In this document: positions 6,008-49,722 of the stretch, piece after piece | Layout of the letters: each line of letters begins with the position of its first letter | Numbering within the stretch: the stretch's first letter is position 1 | Virus record (IMG/VR): IMGVR_UViG_3300032309_002614 | Location: 25,836 to 89,835 of that record | DNA: 64,000 bases | Origin: a virus | Lineage: Duplodnaviria; Caudoviricetes | Direction: 5' to 3' (one strand) | Position numbers and translations under genes: made by a program | The notes under the pieces: generated by a model | The model's input: only the letters and a program-made list of their open reading frames with translations | Database searches by the model: none | What the model was told of the DNA's origin: nothing

Positions 6008-6775
6008 TTGGACGACATGCTACCATTGTTTAAATCTCATTTCAGTATAGGAAAATCTATACTGACTTTAGATGATCCAAAGAAGGTCACTGAAGGAGGA
6101 TCTGATAGTGTATTTAAGATCGCGAAAGACAACGGTCTTAAACAGGTTATATTAGTCGAAGACTCGTTGATTGGATTCTTTGAAGCGTACAAGCGCAGCA
6201 AAGAAATGGGTATTCAATTAATATTTGGCCTAAGACTTTCAATGAGAAACTCTGCTCTTCCAGAAGATGAAGGCAGTCAACATAAAGTAATTATATTTGC
6301 TAAGGATGATATTGGGTGCAAGTTACTCAATAAAATCTATTCAAAAGCCTTTTGCACCAATTCTGGATTTCTAAGCTATAGCGACTTGAAGGAGTTGTGG
6401 AACGAAACTTCTCTCAAGCTCGCTATTCCATTTTATGATTCATTTATTTATATAAATAATCTATCTTTTGGAAATGCTGTTCCTGATCTTTCTTTCACTA
6501 AAGCTACTTTGTTTTACGAAGATAACGCCTTAGCTTTAGATTATATTCTTCAAGAGAAGGTAAAAGAATTTTCTATCAATAACGAGATGCCAATGGTTAA
6601 AGTTCGCAGTATTTATTACAATAAGAAATCTGATGTCAAAGCTTTTATGGCATACAAGATAATTTGTAATCGATCTTTCGGCAAAGACCGTTCACTAGAA
6701 AAACCAGAGTTGCCTCATTTTTGCAGCGATAAATTTAGTTTCGAAGCTTGGAAGGAAGAAAATGCTACGATTTAA
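6008..6775 (+). CDS. PHP domain of DNA polymerase III alpha, as a stand-alone gene
   Basis: FKSHFSIGKS, F....K..G...IFGL, IIFAKDDIGCKLLNKI; start TTG 6008 or ATG 6017; promoter TTGACA(5980)-N16-TAGAAT. Confidence 0.8.
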   Translation: MDDMLPLFKSHFSIGKSILTLDDPKKVTEGGSDSVFKIAKDNGLKQVILVEDSLIGFFEAYKRSKEMGIQLIFGLRLSMRNSALPEDEGSQHKVIIFAKDDIGCKLLNKIYSKAFCTNSGFLSYSDLKELWNETSLKLAIPFYDSFIYINNLSFGNAVPDLSFTKATLFYEDNALALDYILQEKVKEFSINNEMPMVKVRSIYYNKKSDVKAFMAYKIICNRSFGKDRSLEKPELPHFCSDKFSFEAWKEENATI

Positions 6776-7391
6776 TAAAGAACAAAAGTATATTTGTTTC
6801 GATTTTGAAACCTGTCATCTAAATCTGCTTGATGATAGCAATAAGCCTTGGCAATTAAGTTATCTGATTGCTAAAGGCAGCAATATACTTAAAGAAGTAG
6901 ATAATCATATCTATTGGCCCGATCTTAAGCTCTCAGAAGGAGCAAAGATTGTGACTCATTTTGATGAACGTAAATACCATTCGTTAGCTGCCGATCCAAA
7001 AGAAGTTCTGGAGGCTTTTGAAGATTATATTTATAATGATGAGTATCTGATTATTGGACAAAATCTATTGGGCTTTGATGTGTATATTCATAATACATAT
7101 AGAAGACTGATGGGTAAGAAAAGCGACTTCTCTTATGTTAAGAGAATTATAGATACAAACTGTATCGCTAAAGCTATTAAAAAGAATCTCAAACCTCAAA
7201 GAGATTCTGATTTTACTTTTTGGCAGTATAGATTAAATGATTTTCGCGAGAAAGGTCTAAAGACAAGCATTAAAACTCAGTTGAAAGAATACAAGATTGA
7301 CTTCGATGAGAACATGCTTCACAATTCCATGTACGACGTTCAGATGAATTTTAAGATTTTTCAGAAGCAGCTTTGGCAAATTGAAATATGA
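6762..7391 (+). CDS. DEDDh 3'-5' exonuclease (DnaQ/epsilon-like proofreading subunit)
   Basis: DFET (Exo I), GQNLLGFD (Exo II), HNSMYD (Exo III). Confidence 0.85.
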   Translation: MLRFNKEQKYICFDFETCHLNLLDDSNKPWQLSYLIAKGSNILKEVDNHIYWPDLKLSEGAKIVTHFDERKYHSLAADPKEVLEAFEDYIYNDEYLIIGQNLLGFDVYIHNTYRRLMGKKSDFSYVKRIIDTNCIAKAIKKNLKPQRDSDFTFWQYRLNDFREKGLKTSIKTQLKEYKIDFDENMLHNSMYDVQMNFKIFQKQLWQIEI

Positions 7392-9148
7392 ATTTTTTAC
7401 AAGACATTAAAACTTATGATAACGCCATGCTTCCCGGCGTTCGATTGCCACAAATCTCCATCGAAAGTAAATATTACGATTTGTTGAGCATACCCACTTC
7501 TTCAGATAATTTTACATTTCTGAAGACTTTGTGTTGCAAGAGTTTAAATAACTTAGGATTAAATAATAATCAATATGTTGAGCGAATGGAGATGGAATTG
7601 GAAATCTTCAGAGAGCTTGATTTCGTTGATTATGTACTTCTCAACTGGGATATTCTTAATTACTGCCATGAAAATAATATTCCAACTGGTGCTGGTCGTG
7701 GTAGTGCTGCGGGTTCTTTGGTTCTATTTATTGTGGGTGTTACGAAAGTTGATCCCATAAAATACGAACTATTCTTTGAGCGTTTCGTTAGCCGTTCTCG
7801 CGCTAAGAAGATTATCAAAGATGATATTACTTATCTTGATGGTTCTCTTCTTCCTGACGTAGATAACGATATCAGCTATGATAGACGCGCAGAAGTAATT
7901 AAGTATATTGAGCAGAAACATCTTGGCAAAACATCGAAGATCTTAACTCTCAATACTCTTTCTAGTAAGCTTTGTATTAAAGAGTGCGGAAAGATTGTTG
8001 GCGCTTTATCAGAAACAGATGTTAATGAAGTCAGTGACAATATTCCTAAATTATTTGGACGGGTTTTTGATTTGGAAGAGGCTTACAAAGCTAATGATAA
8101 ATTTAAAGCTTGGGTTGATCAAAATAAATTCGTATTTGAAATAGCTAAGAAGATCGAAGGACTGAATAAGAATACTGGTGTTCATCCTTCTGGTATTGCT
8201 ATTTCTTATTATAAGATCGAAGAAGTTTGCCCAGTTCAAAAGACTTCTGATGGTGATTTAGTTAGCGGCTATGATATGAATTATGTAGCCGAACTAATGG
8301 TTAAGTTCGATGTTCTTGGCTTGAGAACTTTGACTGTAGTCAGCGAAGTTTGTAAAAGACTTAATATTGAAATGACTTCTATTGATCCAGAAGATCCTTT
8401 CATTTACGAAAGCTTTCAGAATCTTCGTACTCCACAAGGTCTATTCCAAATTGAAGCGGAAACCAACTTCAAGGTATGCCGTAAAGTTAAGCCCAAGTCT
8501 CTTGAACAGCTTAGTGCGGTAGTTGCTATTGCTCGTCCCGGTGCATTGGACTTCGCTGATCAGTATGCTACATATTCAGCTTCAGGAGTATTTCAGCTTG
8601 TTCACGATTTCTTTAAAGAAGAGCTTTCATATACTGGTGGCATTCCTCTTTATCAAGAGCAGTTGATGAAGATGGCTGTGCGTTTGGGATTCACTCTTGA
8701 TGAGTCAGAGCAGTTGCGACGTATCGTTGGTAAAAAGAAGGTTGATCAAATGCCAGCATGGCAAGGAAAAATTCGTCAGAAAGTTACAGAGCAGAATTTA
8801 GATATAGCAATTGGAGACGTATTATGGAAGGTGGCTGAAGACTCAGCGAATTATTCATTTAACAAATGTTTATTACCAGAAACTGTAGTTGAAAGCAAAG
8901 ATGGTCTAAAATGTTTAAGTGAGATTAAAAAAGGAGATTCTGTTTTAGCTTATGATGTAGAAAATAATATTGATCATTTTGTACAAGTTGTAGATATTCA
9001 TAAGAATGAAGTTGAAGTCTACGAAGTGGAAATGGAAGACGGAACAAAAATTTGCTGTTCTATGGATCATAAATTTCTATGTGGAGATAAAAAAATGCAT
9101 ACTCTCAGAGATATTATTTCTCAACGTTTAGAGATTATGTGTAAATAA
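7388..9148 (+). CDS. dnaE: DNA polymerase III alpha N-terminal part fused to N-intein (split intein N-half)
   Basis: GRGSAAGSL, FERF, PDVDND, HPSG, VKFDVLGL, YQEQLM, NYSFNK then CLLPET intein block A. Confidence 0.95.
   Translation: MNFLQDIKTYDNAMLPGVRLPQISIESKYYDLLSIPTSSDNFTFLKTLCCKSLNNLGLNNNQYVERMEMELEIFRELDFVDYVLLNWDILNYCHENNIPTGAGRGSAAGSLVLFIVGVTKVDPIKYELFFERFVSRSRAKKIIKDDITYLDGSLLPDVDNDISYDRRAEVIKYIEQKHLGKTSKILTLNTLSSKLCIKECGKIVGALSETDVNEVSDNIPKLFGRVFDLEEAYKANDKFKAWVDQNKFVFEIAKKIEGLNKNTGVHPSGIAISYYKIEEVCPVQKTSDGDLVSGYDMNYVAELMVKFDVLGLRTLTVVSEVCKRLNIEMTSIDPEDPFIYESFQNLRTPQGLFQIEAETNFKVCRKVKPKSLEQLSAVVAIARPGALDFADQYATYSASGVFQLVHDFFKEELSYTGGIPLYQEQLMKMAVRLGFTLDESEQLRRIVGKKKVDQMPAWQGKIRQKVTEQNLDIAIGDVLWKVAEDSANYSFNKCLLPETVVESKDGLKCLSEIKKGDSVLAYDVENNIDHFVQVVDIHKNEVEVYEVEMEDGTKICCSMDHKFLCGDKKMHTLRDIISQRLEIMCK
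8867..9145 (+). mobile_element. Split intein N-fragment (93 aa)
   Basis: Starts with Cys (CLLPETVV), block B CSMDHKF, ends at stop codon; no endonuclease domain. Confidence 0.9.
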
Positions 9149-9152
9149 TAGC

Positions 9153-10100
9153 ATGAGCGTTTTTAAAGATGAAGGTTTAAAAAAAATCATACCTATAGAT
9201 ATTTTTAATTATTGTATAATAGACAAAAAAACAAAAAAAGAAATTACAAATCTATTTCCTTCTAGGAATGAAGGTATTTATTATTTAAATAAATTTATAA
9301 ATTTTTTATCAAAATATCATAAAATTTCTATTCAAGAATATATTGAAAAATATTTTAATGAAAAATGGCCTATTTGTCCAATATCTAAAGAACCAGTTGG
9401 CTATAAAACCACAGGAATTGGACTTGTTCTTTCTAAGTTTAAAAGAGGCAAAGTAGACAAAAACAATAGCGTGGCTTTTAGAAAAGCTTGTGAAAAGTTT
9501 TCCCAAGAAAGACTTGGTAAAAACAATCCTATGTATGGTAAAAAAGCTTGGAATACTGGATTAAAAAAAGAGACTGATGAAAGAGTGGCTATAGTAGCAA
9601 AAAAAAGAACTGGTAAAAAAATGTCTCAAGATTCAAAAGATAAAATGAAAGAAGCTAGAGAAAGACATCCTTTAAAAGCTAGGCACACTACAAAACATTC
9701 GGAAGAATCAAAAGAAAAAATGAGAAAAGCCACCATTAATCGTTGGCAAATTGGTGAATTTTCATTCAAAATTACTTCTATAGAGAAAAAAGTAGATCAA
9801 TGGCTTAAAAATAACTGCGTTAACTACGTTTTTCAACACGGTATCGGCGGTTTTGTTGCCGATTTCGTTTGCTTAGATGAAAAAATTATAATAGAATGTC
9901 AAGGAGACTTCTTCCATTGCAATCCGTGTTTTGAAAAATATGCAGAACCAAAATACGATATACAAAAAAGAAATCTATATAGAGATAAAATAAAGAAACA
10001 GAAGTATAAAGATTTAGGATGGAAGTTGATAGAATTGTGGGAAAGCGACATTAACTCTGGAGAATTTAAAAACATTTTAAGATGCGAACTCAAAAAATAA
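9153..10100 (+). mobile_element. Free-standing homing endonuclease (NUMOD3-type repeats plus Vsr-like/EDxHD nuclease) between the split-intein halves
   Basis: GKNNPMYGKKAWN, HSEESKEKMR, ADFVCLDEKIIIECQGDFFHCNP, D..K.......GW.L..LWE. Confidence 0.85.
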
Positions 10101-10195
10101 TTTCGATTAAACCTTTAGGTTTAAAAAATACTTTAGATTTAGAAGTTAACCATTCAGATCATAATTTTTATGCTGAAGGCTTAGTTTCTTCGAAC
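10082..10195 (+). mobile_element. Split intein C-fragment (38 aa)
   Basis: MRTQKIISIK..., block F TLDLEVNHSDHNF, block G VSSN followed by Ser+1 (SHS). Confidence 0.9.
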
Positions 10196-11269
10196 TCTCA
10201 CTCTATCTCTTATGCTATTTTGGCTGCGTGGACTGCTTATCTAAAATTCAAGTATCCGCATGAATTTTTCTTGGCATTGCTTCAGTTGTCTAAATATGAG
10301 CCTGATTCACATCAAGAAATTAACAAGATTTCAAAAGAGCTAGTATATTTTGATATCAAACTTTTACCTCCTGATCTAGCAAAATCTGCTCTTGATTTTA
10401 AGATTGAAGATGGCAATATTCGTTTTGGATTAAATTCTATTAAAGGCGTTTCTGAAAAGACGTTACAAGCTCTTCAGAGTTTCAGAGAAACGAATACTCC
10501 AACAAAGTTTGATATTTTTATCGCCGCTAAACAAGCTGGTATTAATATCGGTCTACTTTCTTCTTTAATTCAAGCTGGAACTCTAAGTTCATATACTCAT
10601 AGACGATCACGCTTAGTTCTTGAGGTGCAAACTTTTAATATCTTAACTGATAAAGAAAAGAAGTTCGCTTGTAGTGTTGGGCCTAAATATGACTATGATA
10701 TTTTAACTATCGTAAGTGAATGCGCTTTCAAGGGTCAATCTCTTAATGAAAGCGGTAAACCTTTCATGAATGAAAAGCGAAAAATTACATTCAAGAAAAA
10801 GTACGATGAATACAAGAAAATCTATGAACAGAACAAAGATCATGAGAAGTTCGCGAACTGGGTTTTTGAAAATAGGCTCTTAGGTTATACTCCAACTATT
10901 CGACTAAAGACTATTTTTCAGCAATCTGAGTGTACGTTTACAGATACAATGGAATTTCAATCTGCTTTTAAAGAAGACAGAGTAAAGATGGTTGGAGTGA
11001 TAGATGATGTTTATAAGGGCAAAACTAAAAAGTCTAATTCTACATTCTATAGATTCCAATTGAAAGATGAAGTTGGCAGCGTAAGTGCGATGTTTTTAGA
11101 TGGTGGAAAACACCAAAGATTAACAGAGTATCTTGAAGACGGTCTTAAAATTCCAGATAAGGAAAGTATTGTAGTTTTCACTGGCAGAAAGGGTGACGAT
11201 GTGCTATGGATAGAGAACATCGGAATCTTGGACGACAAGATCTACATGAAGTTATCTGACATAGAATGA
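10082..11269 (+). CDS. dnaE: C-intein fused to DNA polymerase III alpha C-terminal part
   Basis: SHSISYA..AYLK, LLPPDL..S, IRFGLNSIKGV, E...LGY, C-terminal OB-fold-like region. Confidence 0.93.
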   Translation: MRTQKIISIKPLGLKNTLDLEVNHSDHNFYAEGLVSSNSHSISYAILAAWTAYLKFKYPHEFFLALLQLSKYEPDSHQEINKISKELVYFDIKLLPPDLAKSALDFKIEDGNIRFGLNSIKGVSEKTLQALQSFRETNTPTKFDIFIAAKQAGINIGLLSSLIQAGTLSSYTHRRSRLVLEVQTFNILTDKEKKFACSVGPKYDYDILTIVSECAFKGQSLNESGKPFMNEKRKITFKKKYDEYKKIYEQNKDHEKFANWVFENRLLGYTPTIRLKTIFQQSECTFTDTMEFQSAFKEDRVKMVGVIDDVYKGKTKKSNSTFYRFQLKDEVGSVSAMFLDGGKHQRLTEYLEDGLKIPDKESIVVFTGRKGDDVLWIENIGILDDKIYMKLSDIE

Positions 11270-13883: not shown

Positions 13884-15032
13884 ATGAACGATCATAATCC
13901 TATTTACGGTATGAATCCAAATCCTCCAGTATCAAACGATACGTTTGATTTTGCGATGCCAGATATTCCTGAGCCTCCTCAATCAGAAAAACCAGAACCA
14001 AAGGACAAAGATGCGGTTGGTTTTAAATTTGGCTTTATTGGTGCTGGTCAAGGTGGCGGCAAACTAGCTGAAACGTTCTCTCAAATTGGTTATGCTCGCG
14101 TTGGCGTAATTAATACTGCTGATCAAGATCTTGCTACTATCAATGTACCAAACAAGATGAAGTTTGGTGAGCAACAAGGAGCGGGTAAGAATAGAGAGTT
14201 TGCTAAACAAGCTTTCTTGAATAGTAAAGAAGATGTCGTTGATTTTATTAAATCTTCTGTTGGTACGGATATTGATCGTATTTTTGTAACAGTTGGTGCT
14301 GGTGGTGGAACTGGTGCTGGTGTTTGCTCCGAACTTGTTAAGACGGTTAAGGAATATCAAAATACTGTAAAGGCAAGTTCTCCTTATGTTGGTCTAATTC
14401 TCGCTCTGCCAAAGCTTTCTGAAGGTAAGAAAGTTAGTCAAAATGCTTACGAGACACTAAAGGAAGCTTGTGAACTAGTAGAGCAAAAGATTGTTTCTCC
14501 TCTTATTATTCTTGATAATGAAAGAATTAATACTCTTTATCCAAAGCTATCTGTAAATAAATTCTGGCAAGTTGCAAATGCCAATATTTGTTCTCTATTC
14601 CACTTGTTTAATAATATTATAACAAAGAATAGTCAATATAGCACATTCGATACAAATGATTTCAGAACTGTTCTCGATTCTGGTATTATGGTTTTTGGTG
14701 CAGCTAACATTACTAATCATAGCAGTGAAGCCGAAATCAGTAAGGCAGTACGCGAAAATCTCAAGAGAAATGTTTTGTGCGGCGAACTTGATCTTTCTAC
14801 TGGTAGCACCGCTGCTGCTGTGGCTATTTGTGACGAAAAGACGTTAGACTATATTCCTCAAGAATACCTAGACAATGCTTTTAATCAATTAAATAGAACT
14901 TTAAAGACTAACAGCACGGTTCATCAAGGTGTTTACAAGGGTGTTAAAGAAGGTCTTTCTATTTTTACTGCAATTGGCGGCATCACGACTCCAACTGGTA
15001 AACTAGAAGCTCTTCTAAAAGCTAGTCAATAA
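13884..15032 (+). CDS. Tubulin/FtsZ-family GTPase (PhuZ/TubZ-like)
   Basis: GAGQGGG (T1), INTAD, GAGKN, tubulin signature GAGGGTGAG, LDNE, D..DFRTVL. Confidence 0.9.
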   Translation: MNDHNPIYGMNPNPPVSNDTFDFAMPDIPEPPQSEKPEPKDKDAVGFKFGFIGAGQGGGKLAETFSQIGYARVGVINTADQDLATINVPNKMKFGEQQGAGKNREFAKQAFLNSKEDVVDFIKSSVGTDIDRIFVTVGAGGGTGAGVCSELVKTVKEYQNTVKASSPYVGLILALPKLSEGKKVSQNAYETLKEACELVEQKIVSPLIILDNERINTLYPKLSVNKFWQVANANICSLFHLFNNIITKNSQYSTFDTNDFRTVLDSGIMVFGAANITNHSSEAEISKAVRENLKRNVLCGELDLSTGSTAAAVAICDEKTLDYIPQEYLDNAFNQLNRTLKTNSTVHQGVYKGVKEGLSIFTAIGGITTPTGKLEALLKASQ

Positions 15033-46411: not shown

Positions 46412-47340
46412 TGAACTACTTCGCTGAACTTGTTGGGCAAGAAGAAGTCAAACGCAAGCTTTCATTTTATTTGGAAGCTCATGATAAGACCGAACTTGTA
46501 CCGTTTTTGAACTTCGTTGGCGCAAAAGGTTTAGGCAAGACTGCATTTGTTCGCGAATTTGCCAAGAATATTTACAATACCACCGGAGTCAATAAGCCAC
46601 TACTTGAGCTAAATAGCTCTAGTATTAAATCGGGGAATCAGTTTTTCGAACAAGTTTTTCTGCCCCATATTCAAGATCAAGAAATTATTTGTTTCTTTGA
46701 TGAAGCGCATTGTCTGCCAAGAGACTTTACTTACGCATTACTTTCTATTCTCTCTACAGAGAAAGATCATGTAATTGATTATAATGCTGGCAAAGCAAAT
46801 TATATCTTCAATTTCAAGAAGCATCATTTTATATTCGCGACAACTGAATCAGATAAGCTATTTATTCCGTTGCGTGATCGATTGACGACGATTGAATTTG
46901 CAGATTATAATACAAACGAATTGAAGGAAATTTTTCAAAAAGCTCTACCAAATATTGAGTTTGATGAAGAAGCGTTGTCAATGTTGTCTGAAACTTCCCG
47001 AGGCAACGCGAGATCTTGTGTGCTTCGCGCCAAAGAAGTCAAGCTTTACGCTGATCGATACGAGATCACGCGATTTACCAAAGAAGACGCTGAGAAGTTG
47101 TTTTATATTCTTGATATTCTTCCTTACGGTTTGAATAGAATTGAGTGGCAGATACTAAATATTTTGCGTAAAGAAGGTAGCTGTACTCTTTCTATGCTCG
47201 CTGCAAAAACTGGTTTGTCAAGAACCGCGATTCAAAGGGATTTTGAATTGTATCTTATTCGTAAAGGGTTTATTAGTATTGATAATGTTAGATATATTAC
47301 GAGTAATGGATGCAAAGTATTAGAAGGTGTGAAGAAATAG
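46411..47340 (+). CDS. ruvB: RuvB-like Holliday junction branch-migration ATPase
   Basis: GQE.VK, GAKGLGKT, FFDEAH, ATTE...L..PLRDR, SRGNAR, E.YLIRKGFI. Confidence 0.85.
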   Translation: MNYFAELVGQEEVKRKLSFYLEAHDKTELVPFLNFVGAKGLGKTAFVREFAKNIYNTTGVNKPLLELNSSSIKSGNQFFEQVFLPHIQDQEIICFFDEAHCLPRDFTYALLSILSTEKDHVIDYNAGKANYIFNFKKHHFIFATTESDKLFIPLRDRLTTIEFADYNTNELKEIFQKALPNIEFDEEALSMLSETSRGNARSCVLRAKEVKLYADRYEITRFTKEDAEKLFYILDILPYGLNRIEWQILNILRKEGSCTLSMLAAKTGLSRTAIQRDFELYLIRKGFISIDNVRYITSNGCKVLEGVKK

Positions 47341-47362
47341 TGTAAGATATTATACATTTGAT

Positions 47363-47437
47363 GCCGGAGTAGCTCAATAGTAGAGCAATACTTTTGTAAA
47401 GTAAAGGTTGCAGGTGCAAATCCTGTCTTCGGCTCCA
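47363..47437 (+). tRNA. tRNA-Thr(UGU)
   Basis: GCCGGAG/CTTCGGC, loop TTTGTAA, GCAGG-TGCAAAT-CCTGT, CCA. Confidence 0.9.
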
Positions 47438-47443
47438 ATTTTT

Positions 47444-47908
47444 ATGAAAAGAAGTTTGTATAAAGATGAAATCTTCAGGTTGAGATCTGAAGGTAAAACA
47501 GGAAATGAAATTTCTAAGCTTCTCAAATGTTCAAGAACATTAGTTTCTTATTACATAGATCTAGGTTATCAAAAAAAACATCAAAATCGATCTAAGACTT
47601 TTAAAAAGACTAATAGATTTGCAAAGAAAGAAGAGATAAGAAACAAGTTTGGCGGCAAATGTCAAATTTGTTCTTATGACAAGTGTCAAAGTGTACTGAG
47701 TTTTCATCATCTTCCCGGTACAGATAAAAAGTTTACTATTTCAGATGCGATAGTAAGAAAAAGAAAATCAGATGAAGAATTAGTGAATGAGTTGAAAAAA
47801 TGTATTTTGGTTTGTGCGAATTGTCACGGTGAGATTCATGCGGGGATCACAGAAATTCCAGAAGGTATCAAGAATCCCTTGACAATCAGTGAAAGTATGG
47901 TAAATTGA
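47444..47908 (+). mobile_element. HTH plus HNH homing endonuclease
   Basis: G.TG.EISK.L.CSRTLVSYY; CQIC...L.FHH; KCILVCANCH.EIH. Confidence 0.85.
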
Positions 47909-47995
47909 TCGTGTTCTTTGGATGCAGCAGGTAGTTGAAGATAGTTTGAAGTTTCTGCTAAGTCCGCTTGACAATCGGTGAAAGTGTGATAGATT
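47879..47995 (+). promoter_or_regulatory. Tandem near-duplicate sigma70 promoters for the stable-RNA cluster
   Basis: TTGACAATCAGTGAAAGTATGGTAAATT (47879) and TTGACAATCGGTGAAAGTGTGATAGATT (47968), each followed by GTTCTTT. Confidence 0.8.
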
Positions 47996-48012
47996 GTCAA
48001 TGTTCTTTAAAT

Positions 48013-48086
48013 GGGATTGAAGCTTTAAAGTGAAGCAATAAACTTTTAATTTATTGAAGAGGGAGCGTTACCCTCCAGTCCTACCA
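48013..48086 (+). tRNA. tRNA-Lys(UUU), atypical D/T loops
   Basis: GGGATTG/CAGTCCT, ATAAA-CTTTTAA-TTTAT, GAGGG-AGCGTTA-CCCTC, CCA. Confidence 0.88.
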
Positions 48087-48108
48087 TTTTTTTTGTTCTT
48101 TATAAGCT

Positions 48109-48333
48109 TTGAGCGGTTGATGATTTATATCTAATGTGTGTTAGATATATTTGAGGAATTATTCCTTCCCGCTCAATTAATTTGAGTAAAGAAGTAGATT
48201 TTATCTTAGAGTGATATAAGATAAATTTCGAAGTAATTGGAATTACACTTTACTCTATTTTTAAGTAAGATAGTAGAAGTTATTATGAATCGCATAATAT
48301 CTTTGAAGGTAATTGGTATTACAATCTTACTTA
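48109..48333 (+). ncRNA. Three tandem ~70-nt three-way-junction RNA units of unknown family
   Basis: Units 48109-48176, 48184-48255, 48262-48333, each with a closing stem and two internal hairpins. Confidence 0.7.
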
Positions 48334-48367
48334 GTTCTTTTAAAATTTAATATGTAGTAGTTTCTGT

Positions 48368-48875
48368 GAGTCATTAGCTCAAGGGTAGAGCAAAAAACTT
48401 AGCGTATACAGCAATGTATACTGGGTCCATATAGTAGAAATATTATATGCGTATGGTGTAAATTCGGTGAACGGCTCGATTTAATAAGTCAACCCAACGC
48501 CGAGCGAAGTTTTAGGCAAACGCTAGAGAAATAATAGAAGAAAGGATTGTGGGTAAATAGGTGCAATAGTGACCTACCATGATTGCTAGGCTACCCGTCT
48601 AGCCACTTAATTGTGATAAATTCTATAGCCTCATAATAAAAAACGTGTAGAGACTATAATCACCTATCTAAATTTGTGTGTAAAGGGTAGTCTCAACTAT
48701 CGGAATAAAATACAAATATGATAAAGGCATAGTCCAGACCACAAACAATGAAATCAGTTGTATATGGTGGTCCTTTAGGCCATTTAAATTATAACTCGTC
48801 AAAAGACCGTTGGTAGTGAAAACTATAGTGGTAAGCATAATTTTTCGGTTATTCGTTCGAATCGAATATGACTCA
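48368..48875 (+). tRNA. tRNA(CAU) (elongator Met or Ile2) interrupted by a group I intron; exons 48368-48399 and 48836-48875
   Basis: GAGTCAT/ATGACTC, GCTC/GAGC D-stem, AAAAA-CT|CATAA-TTTTT, ATTCG-TTCGAAT-CGAAT. Confidence 0.88.
48400..48835 (+). mobile_element. ORF-less group I intron (436 nt)
   Basis: U33 5' splice site with P1 U-G pair, terminal G; P AAATTCGGTGAA(48460), Q AACGCCGAGCGAAG(48496), R GTGTAGAGACTA(48645), S AAAGGCATAGTCC(48723). Confidence 0.9.
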
Positions 48876-48899
48876 CAGAGACTATTATGTATTTTTTAT

Positions 48900-48971
48900 C
48901 GTAGGTGAAGCTGGTAGTCTAGCGCAGTGACTTATAATCGCTGAGTATCGGGGCAGAACCGACATCTACGA
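48900..48971 (+). tRNA. tRNA-Ile(UAU), unusual stem geometry, CCA not encoded
   Basis: CGTAGGTG/CATCTACG, CAGTGA-CTTATAA-TCGCTG, TCGG-GGCAGAA-CCGA. Confidence 0.75.
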
Positions 48972-48972
48972 C

Positions 48973-49047
48973 GGCCCATTCGACTACTGGCTAGGTCATC
49001 AGGTTTTCAACCTGAAGAAGAGAGATCGATACTCTCATGGGCTACCA
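48973..49047 (+). tRNA. tRNA-Glu(UUC)
   Basis: GGCCCAT/ATGGGCT, TCAGG-TTTTCAA-CCTGA, GAGAG-ATCGATA-CTCTC, CCA. Confidence 0.92.
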
Positions 49048-49059
49048 ATTTTTGTTCTT

Positions 49060-49722
49060 TTACAATTTTGAATTTATTATATTTACTATAATATCTAAGT
49101 ATTTTTGAGCTTTGTCAGGTTTGAAATAATTTAAACTAGATGTATCAATAATACATAATTCAATACTCTTCTCTAAGCAAGCTTGAAATTTACGCTGATC
49201 GTTGTTTTTGATTTGATCTAGTTTATTTAAACCATAAATTGGTTCGTAATGAAAAATGCCATTAAGCTCAAAAGCAAGCTTTAATATTGGAATATAAATA
49301 TCTAGTTCAGAGTTAATTGTGTCTTTACGATTAAAATGAAATTCTAAATTTGGATATTTATTTGGTAACGCTTGTTCAAAGTATATTTCCATTTTTGATC
49401 TTCTGCATCCATGAGTCTTATGGGTATTATTATAAGTGGCGGCACAAGAAGACGAACAAAAAGAGTTAGGATGTTTTTTTAATTGATTGCGTGTTTTTAA
49501 AAACGCTTTGTCACATTGTCTGCACGTTACTTCTTTTCTTTTATCTTTCGCTTTAACGCTGCAAGCATTGGAGCAAAAATGATTCTTATAAGAACGTAGT
49601 TTTAGATTAGATTTTATATATTTCTGCATTTTCTCAAAATTTTGTTGGCAATAGTCGCACTTAACAGGTATCATCTGAGTAGCTTTAAAAGATAACATTT
49701 GTTCTATTGAAATTAAAAGCAT
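49060..49722 (-). mobile_element. Zn-ribbon plus Vsr-like/PD-(D/E)xK homing endonuclease
   Basis: CDYC, FCSNAC, CRQC, FCSSSC; ELDIYIP.LKLAFELNGIFHY. Confidence 0.8.

Follow-up and report, generated by a model that had tools for sequence, protein, structure and literature searches.

What is encoded between the tRNA-Lys and tRNA(CAU) genes of this phage, where a preliminary description of the sequence had placed three units of ~70 nt with defined closing stems and had read them as an undescribed family of RNAs? The window (the whole stretch of DNA that was analysed, 64 kb in length) derives from an uncultured freshwater phage with a G+C content of 33%, whose protein identity to its cultured relatives does not exceed about 32%. 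HNH genes are numerous, and the stretch also carries rIIA, DnaB, genes similar to those of RecA and tubulin, and a Pol III alpha-type polymerase (6008-11269) that is apparently divided into a PHP part (6008-6775), a core (7388-9148) and an HhH part (10082-11269), with ORFs for an exonuclease and for a NUMOD3/DUF559 endonuclease (9153-10100) between the pieces; the tubulin/FtsZ-family gene, which is TubZ/PhuZ-like, occupies 13884-15032 in a phage that is known from contigs of ~50-80 kb only. The interval in question belongs to a tRNA operon with the following features, the units themselves being listed further below:

47363, plus strand: tRNA-Thr, a member of the tRNA operon
47408-47908: HNH ORF within the tRNA operon stretch
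47879-47906, plus strand: promoter 1, sigma-70-like (TTGACA, 16 nt, TG-TAAATT), kept in relatives
47926-47959, plus strand: leader hairpin between the two promoters (fold z-score -1.2)
47968-47995, plus strand: promoter 2, sigma-70-like, a near-duplicate of promoter 1, followed by GTTCTTT at 48002 and then by tRNA-Lys
48013-48086, plus strand: tRNA-Lys(UUU) with encoded CCA (Rfam tRNA model, 43.8 bits), the constant 5' neighbour of the array in relatives
48334-48368, plus strand: conserved leader GTTCTTT..AATATGTAGTAGTTTCT, which links the array to the next tRNA
48369-48880, plus strand: tRNA(CAU), split by an intron of ~440 nt, read from the sequence; the constant 3' neighbour in relatives

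The order of the operon is tRNA-Thr, HNH ORF, two promoters, tRNA-Lys, three units, split tRNA(CAU) and more tRNAs, and the units sit 3' of the promoters with no terminator between. Both flanking tRNAs named in the preliminary description are present, tRNA(CAU) as an intron-split gene.

Several further details of the operon deserve mention. The insert in tRNA(CAU) lies in the anticodon loop and gives a weak match to the Rfam group I intron (18.7 bits); the same tRNA is uninterrupted in relatives. The tRNA-Lys gene is missed by ARAGORN and detected by the Rfam tRNA model. A tRNA-like gene with a UAU anticodon, located at 48900-48972 directly 5' of tRNA-Glu, is called by neither ARAGORN nor Rfam in the window; in relatives ARAGORN calls a tRNA-Ile(UAU) at the same place. 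The motif GTTCTTT occurs at 47913, 48002, 48095 (48095-48101, ahead of unit 1) and 48334 and resembles the boxA of rrn operons. It starts 6 nt after the -10 box of each promoter and also stands ahead of RNA blocks, and in relatives it is usually found in front of each cassette.

Two types of three-way-junction unit

Relatives were retrieved as 20 IMG/VR loci via a neighbouring clamp-loader-like protein. The interval from tRNA-Lys to tRNA(CAU) gave no blastn alignment in those loci and holds units whose shape is the same and whose stems differ in sequence. Further pattern scans covered viral contigs and, in one scan, metagenome contigs; the matches to looser patterns were mostly due to chance and were filtered by the pairing of P1, the closing stem. 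Units were found in at least 47 viral or metagenome contigs. Since MAFFT alone mis-registered P1 across subtypes, seed models were built from pairs of the same subtype and all matches were re-aligned to the resulting covariance models, R2 for type A and R1 and R3 for type B, which encompass at least 28 distinct type A and 14 distinct type B sequences. In the window the units are placed as follows, and their extents and closing stems agree with the preliminary description:

48109-48176, plus strand: unit 1, type A (model R2, 31.3 bits, E 7e-6); P1 48109-48116 with 48169-48176, J12 48117-48125, P2 48126-48149 with a hexaloop at 48135-48140 inside the invariant AAYGUGUGUU, P3 48153-48168
48184-48255, plus strand: unit 2, type B (model R3, 77.8 bits); P1 48184-48191 with 48248-48255, AGUA 48193-48196, P2 48197-48229, GAA 48230-48232, P3 48233-48246 (loop UGGA), junction A 48247
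48262-48333, plus strand: unit 3, type B (model R3, 80.8 bits); P1 48262-48271 with 48324-48333, AGUA 48272-48275, P2 48276-48304, GAA 48305-48307, P3 48309-48322 (loop UGGU), junction A 48323

In type A, P1 has 8-10 bp and as a rule retains a conserved U.G wobble (22 of the 29 alignment rows); it leads into a J12 strand that is usually (G)AGUCA(C) and in the window takes the variant form UUGAUGAUU. P2 comprises ~12 bp and is capped by AAYGUGUGUU; a J23 strand of 2-3 nt precedes P3, whose 5-6 bp are closed by either a stable tetraloop (UACG or UUCG) or a triloop, and the 3' strand of P1 begins directly after P3. A pseudoknot between the P2 loop and J12 (CAC with GUG) was considered for this type and rejected, as it is not kept in variants of the window type or of the L272 type. 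Type B units likewise begin with a P1 of 8-10 bp, which is succeeded by an invariant AGUA, a P2 variable in both length and loop, and an invariant GAA that is often embedded in UGAAR. P3 has an invariant inner part, AAU-UGGN-AUU, and two covarying outer pairs (G-C/A-U and U-A/C-G), and a single A separates it from the 3' strand of P1. Among the distinct aligned sequences the loop of type A and, in type B, AGUA, GAA and the inner part of P3 stay constant while the flanking stems vary; a compensatory change, GCAAU/AUUGC versus GUAAU/AUUAC, is seen in the relatives L096 and L372.

The preliminary description had assigned AGUA/GAA junctions to all three units and had recognised in them the signature of a bulged-G motif. 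The junctions hold for units 2 and 3, which also share P3, and are absent from unit 1, a member of the sister subtype. As a signature the assignment stands: the two strands flank P2 with the right polarity and show no variation among the 14 type B sequences.

Taken singly, the sequences of the three units say rather little about their folds. The z-scores of the single-sequence folds are modest (-1.7, -1.6 and -3.3 for units 1, 2 and 3, respectively) and the thermodynamic signal is weak in such AT-rich sequence, so that the case rests on the relatives. For unit 3 alone both the minimum free energy and the centroid fold are the three-way junction, for unit 1 it appears in a fold of 285 nt of context, and for unit 2 it is among the low-energy folds. 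Pairwise identity among the units ranges from 54 to 70%. The type B signature (AGUA, gap, GAA, gap, YAAUUGGNAUUR) occurs in the 64 kb only in units 2 and 3 and in none of 100 shuffled versions.

Comparison across relatives is far more telling. In type A (28 distinct sequences; the alignment has 29 rows, one being a mis-filed type B unit) 94.2% of the cells are paired and both sides change at 19 of the 27 pairs, and in type B (14 distinct) 96.7% are paired with changes on both sides at 11 of 22 pairs, all in alignments whose fitting to the models favours pairing. The covariation scores are 0.397 for type A (shuffled mean 0.171) and 0.424 for type B (shuffled mean 0.185), values reached by 0 of 500 shuffles in either case, in a control that is inflated by the relatedness of sequences from one phage lineage; when the pairing partners are slid, the scores drop to at most 0.129 and 0.116, respectively. 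On account of this slid-partner control and of the many pair types seen at single positions, a real structure is the only sensible reading. G.U cells exceed A.C cells (17:3 in type A, 5:1 in type B), which indicates an RNA of the plus strand. That the units are genuine, selected genes for structured RNAs is in our judgement very probable, and the covarying homologues in related phages that the preliminary description had called for are at hand.

Each model finds its best non-self matches in the units of the other type: R2 detects type B units with E values of 0.044 and 0.0002, and for R3 the type A units (E 0.36-0.72) rank ahead of all other non-members, the searched strands totalling 1.8 Mb. 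These reciprocal matches mark types A and B as distant kin that share one architecture. Their grouping into a single undescribed superfamily with two subtypes forms part of the overall explanation given below, and the estimate attached to that explanation, somewhat better than even, is a joint one that includes the grouping.

One further candidate member was the hairpin at 47926-47959, which had been proposed as a minimal copy of the units. This proposal fails: the element is a plain hairpin with AGUU in place of AGUA and without a P3, it is undetected by R1, R2 and R3, and it is neither a three-way junction nor a member of the family. The hairpin may be what is left of a unit, and a pattern that it has in common with unit 3 (TAGTWGAAG...TTTGAAG) gives two matches in the window and none in shuffles, although the pattern was picked post hoc.

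Placement and relation to known RNAs

The position of the units is conserved as well. In every one of the contigs, at least 47 in number, they lie on the same strand as the tRNAs and never on the opposite one; across this set the array starts 10-23 nt 3' of tRNA-Lys(UUU) and ends 2-42 nt 5' of tRNA(CAU). Neighbouring units are separated by 5-7 or 22-23 nt, a spacing like that of the tRNAs, and in several relatives 2-3 nt separate the 3' end of P1 from the position at which RNase P would cut the next tRNA. Arrays occur in the forms A, A-B, A-B-B (the window), B-A and A-B-A, and two close relatives, L004 and L007, have no units at all. This variation in copy number and order, together with the two relatives devoid of units, portrays the RNAs as accessory, modular and dispensable.

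According to the models, neither the rest of the 64-kb window nor ~0.9 Mb of unrelated phage loci contains another copy. The type A pattern had no match among 185,579 prokaryote species, each represented by one genome, and when 47300-49200 was compared by blastn (distant mode) with 50,697 GenBank phage records, nothing but tRNAs and an HNH gene matched and the units were left unmatched. A single type A-like match on the minus strand of L260 (14060-14133, 22.3 bits) was set aside as probably due to chance, as it has no tRNA nearby, lies in a probable coding stretch and comes from a locus that was fetched by the pattern itself. A partner candidate was sought with Pfam and PHROG among ~40 ORFs of the window; no RNA-binding or RNA-repair gene was seen, and the scan returned genes for replication, nucleotide metabolism and homing endonucleases. 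The ORFs adjoining the array are HNH endonucleases and unknowns.

The units do not correspond to any catalogued RNA that we compared. Searches with Rfam 15, at gathering thresholds and at E <= 10, of the window and eight related loci matched no family to the units; the sole match over 48100-48340, to a model for a snoRNA, reaches 18.1 bits (E 6.5), compared to a gathering score of 70, and we found no description of such units in the literature. The core of the preliminary description, an undescribed family of tRNA-sized three-way-junction RNAs that lies on the tRNA strand of a promoter-driven operon, is borne out by this lack of an Rfam family and by the covarying homologues. Neither do the units qualify as tRNAs, being without an Rfam tRNA match (E <= 10) or an ARAGORN call; compared to a cloverleaf, P3 ends in a tetraloop, the P2 loops have 5-8 nt or more and there is no D arm.

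A number of partial likenesses are nonetheless instructive. The bulged-G or loop E module serves as a protein-binding platform, and it reportedly also organises multi-helix junctions of the 16S and 23S rRNAs. Type B resembles the loop E/sarcin-ricin motif in carrying AGUA and GAA on either side of P2 and at a junction in 14 of 14 sequences. Loop E, however, is a local three-dimensional module and not an RNA family, in type B it is predicted from the sequence, type A is without it, and the GAGA loop and other features of the sarcin-ricin loop are absent from the units. With filters switched off, R2 and R3 gave only local matches of at most 12 bits that skip the core on the E. coli rrnH operon; as this operon holds no look-alike, nothing supports mimicry of an rRNA site. 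The earlier suggestion that the units might serve as decoys for a ribotoxin or a defence protein strikes us as unlikely at best.

T-box leaders possess an S-turn in the specifier loop and a UGGN bulge that pairs with the 3' NCCA of a tRNA. Type B shares with them an S-turn signature, a conserved UGGN loop and a location among tRNAs. The differences are substantial: T-boxes extend over at least 200 nt compared to ~72 nt in type B, which is without the Stem I platform, a specifier, the T-box sequence or a downstream gene, UGGN is here drawn as a tetraloop, what follows downstream is a tRNA rather than an ORF, and Rfam gives no T-box match.

Species 1 and 2 of phage T4 (rnaC and rnaD) are non-tRNA RNAs of ~120-140 nt that are co-transcribed and processed with tRNAs; to our knowledge the role of these RNAs of phage tRNA clusters has gone unexplained since their discovery. 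Like the units, they are non-tRNA RNA genes within a tRNA operon, share its strand and are accompanied by homing-endonuclease genes. They are longer, however, and in the comparison with GenBank phages, T4 among them, gave no sequence match to the units, which are compact three-way junctions in tandem and of two subtypes. The niche in phage tRNA operons and the tRNA size are likewise shared with YrlA-like tRNA mimics and with modules of the STnc100/PasD type; yet the units have no Rfam match to YrlA, Y RNA or STnc100 and fold into a three-way junction rather than a cloverleaf or four-way junction. Repeats of the ToxI kind, as employed by type III toxin-antitoxin systems, were rejected given an identity of only 54-70% among the units and the lack of a toxin gene nearby. 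Stable non-tRNA RNAs of phage tRNA operons are, as a kind, old; judged by sequence and predicted fold, these two families are uncatalogued, and their fold is distinct and compact.

A proposed mode of action and its rivals

Conserved folds and a conserved placement are what we observe, and the explanation that we consider best extends them to a superfamily of RNAs that would be co-transcribed with tRNAs, released from the precursor and active in trans; taken as a whole, we rate it somewhat better than even. Transcription would proceed from the two tandem sigma-70-like promoters and would place the units inside a polycistronic tRNA precursor. The nucleases that free the tRNAs could then also free the units, RNase P through its 5' cut on the next tRNA and an enzyme of the RNase E type by cutting in the AU-rich linkers of 5-23 nt, and the products would persist as tRNA-sized RNAs of ~70 nt. 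In the folded molecule a link of 0-1 nt connects P1 with P3; for this reason the two are probably stacked in one long helix, from which P2 would branch off.

The two types appear to present different recognition surfaces. In type B the AGUA/GAA loop-E module would extend the base of P2 and fix the geometry of the junction, and together with the sequence-constrained P3 (AAU-UGGN-AUU) it would form the surface to be recognised; in type A this part would be played by the invariant P2 loop AAYGUGUGUU. Such surfaces most likely bind a protein or RNA of the host or the phage in trans during infection. That the units are released RNAs which act in trans by binding a partner is a proposition we hold to be a little more probable than its converse. 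A much more specific version draws on base pairing with tRNA ends, for which the L15 loop of RNase P and the ribosomal P loop provide precedents, like the antiterminators of T-boxes. By analogy, the UGGN of type B might pair with the 3' NCCA of a tRNA, with the loop-E junction holding the helix, and might thereby shield or sense acceptor ends attacked by defence toxins; the GU-repeat loop of type A would then serve a second partner. We deem this version very unlikely.

The main rival holds that the units act in cis, as spacers made of stable hairpin modules which insulate the folding of the tRNAs, guide RNase P or RNase E or protect the untranslated operon from Rho, and have no function after release. 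The inter-tRNA slot, the next tRNA as near as 2-3 nt and the varying number and order of units, including the two relatives without any, are all compatible with such a role, as are the unrelated elements by which this slot is filled in relatives. All that a spacer requires is stability, yet each unit has ~17 unpaired or loop nucleotides that stay invariant where the stems have changed, three helices and fixed junction lengths are kept too, and many tRNAs of the same operons stand 2-6 nt apart without any module. We regard the spacer reading as rather improbable and prefer RNAs that work in trans.

The possibility that selection acts on the DNA, with the units being mobile palindromes or target cassettes for recombination or homing endonucleases, is highly improbable. 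It draws on the cassette-like presence, absence and reshuffling of the units, on the GTTCTTT ahead of each block, on the abundance of HNH homing-endonuclease genes in the cluster and on fold z-scores that are more negative on the minus strand for two of the three units. The excess of G.U over A.C cells and the conserved U.G wobble, however, fit only an RNA of the plus strand; dispersed copies are absent from the 64 kb and from the searched related loci, the units never stand opposite to the tRNA strand, and their closing stems differ from one another, unlike the terminal repeats of one mobile element. The confinement of all copies to the slot between tRNA-Lys and tRNA(CAU) also led us to reject a miniature mobile palindromic element.

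Decayed or minimalised tRNA genes, i.e. D-armless relics with no function of their own, would account for the tRNA size, the operon, the tRNA-like spacing and the resemblance of P1 plus P3 to the stack of acceptor and T arm; but the failure of the Rfam (E <= 10) and ARAGORN tRNA searches, the lack of a 7-nt anticodon-type loop, of a T loop (P3 has a tetraloop) and of a D arm, and the compensatory changes that keep the features across lineages, which relics would not show, make this reading scarcely credible. Equally remote are self-cleaving ribozymes cutting the precursor: a three-way junction with strands of ~5-7, 3-5 and 1 nt, that is one long, one of 3-4 nt containing GAA and one of a single nucleotide, recalls the hammerhead core, but the catalytic core (CUGANGA ... 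GAAA with the A15.1-U16.1 pair) is absent from the units, J12 being AGUA(R) rather than CUGANGA and hence without C3, U4 and A6, most members do not open P3 with an A-U pair (the pair is G-C in 11 of the 14 type B sequences), and no hammerhead or other ribozyme model matches in Rfam, even at E <= 10.

Phage tRNA clusters have been implicated in countering host defences that cleave tRNAs, namely PARIS, with tRNA-Lys (bioRxiv 10.1101/2024.01.02.573894), and a retron, with tRNA-Tyr (bioRxiv 10.1101/2023.03.15.532788). The units are encoded next to tRNA-Lys, a target of several defence systems (bioRxiv 10.1101/2024.01.02.573894). Compact size, covariation, a predicted three-dimensional module and a fixed place beside tRNA-Lys render the family tractable for structure determination, pull-down and surrogate expression, and the two families add to the inventory of RNAs that annotation pipelines now miss.

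The slot between the two tRNAs holds other elements in relatives. The tRNA-Lys of L329, located at the same place, is apparently split by an insert of ~330 nt. A conserved element of ~140 nt lies between tRNA-Lys and the type A unit in L008 (9698-9841) and also in L001, L005, L011, L013 and L016; it has no Rfam match at the gathering threshold and a fold z-score of -0.66. Unrelated hairpin-rich elements follow the units in L003 (10331-10447), L272 (6574-6712) and L329 (1995-1850, minus strand), and one of these ends in a terminator-like stem and a run of U inside the tRNA operon.
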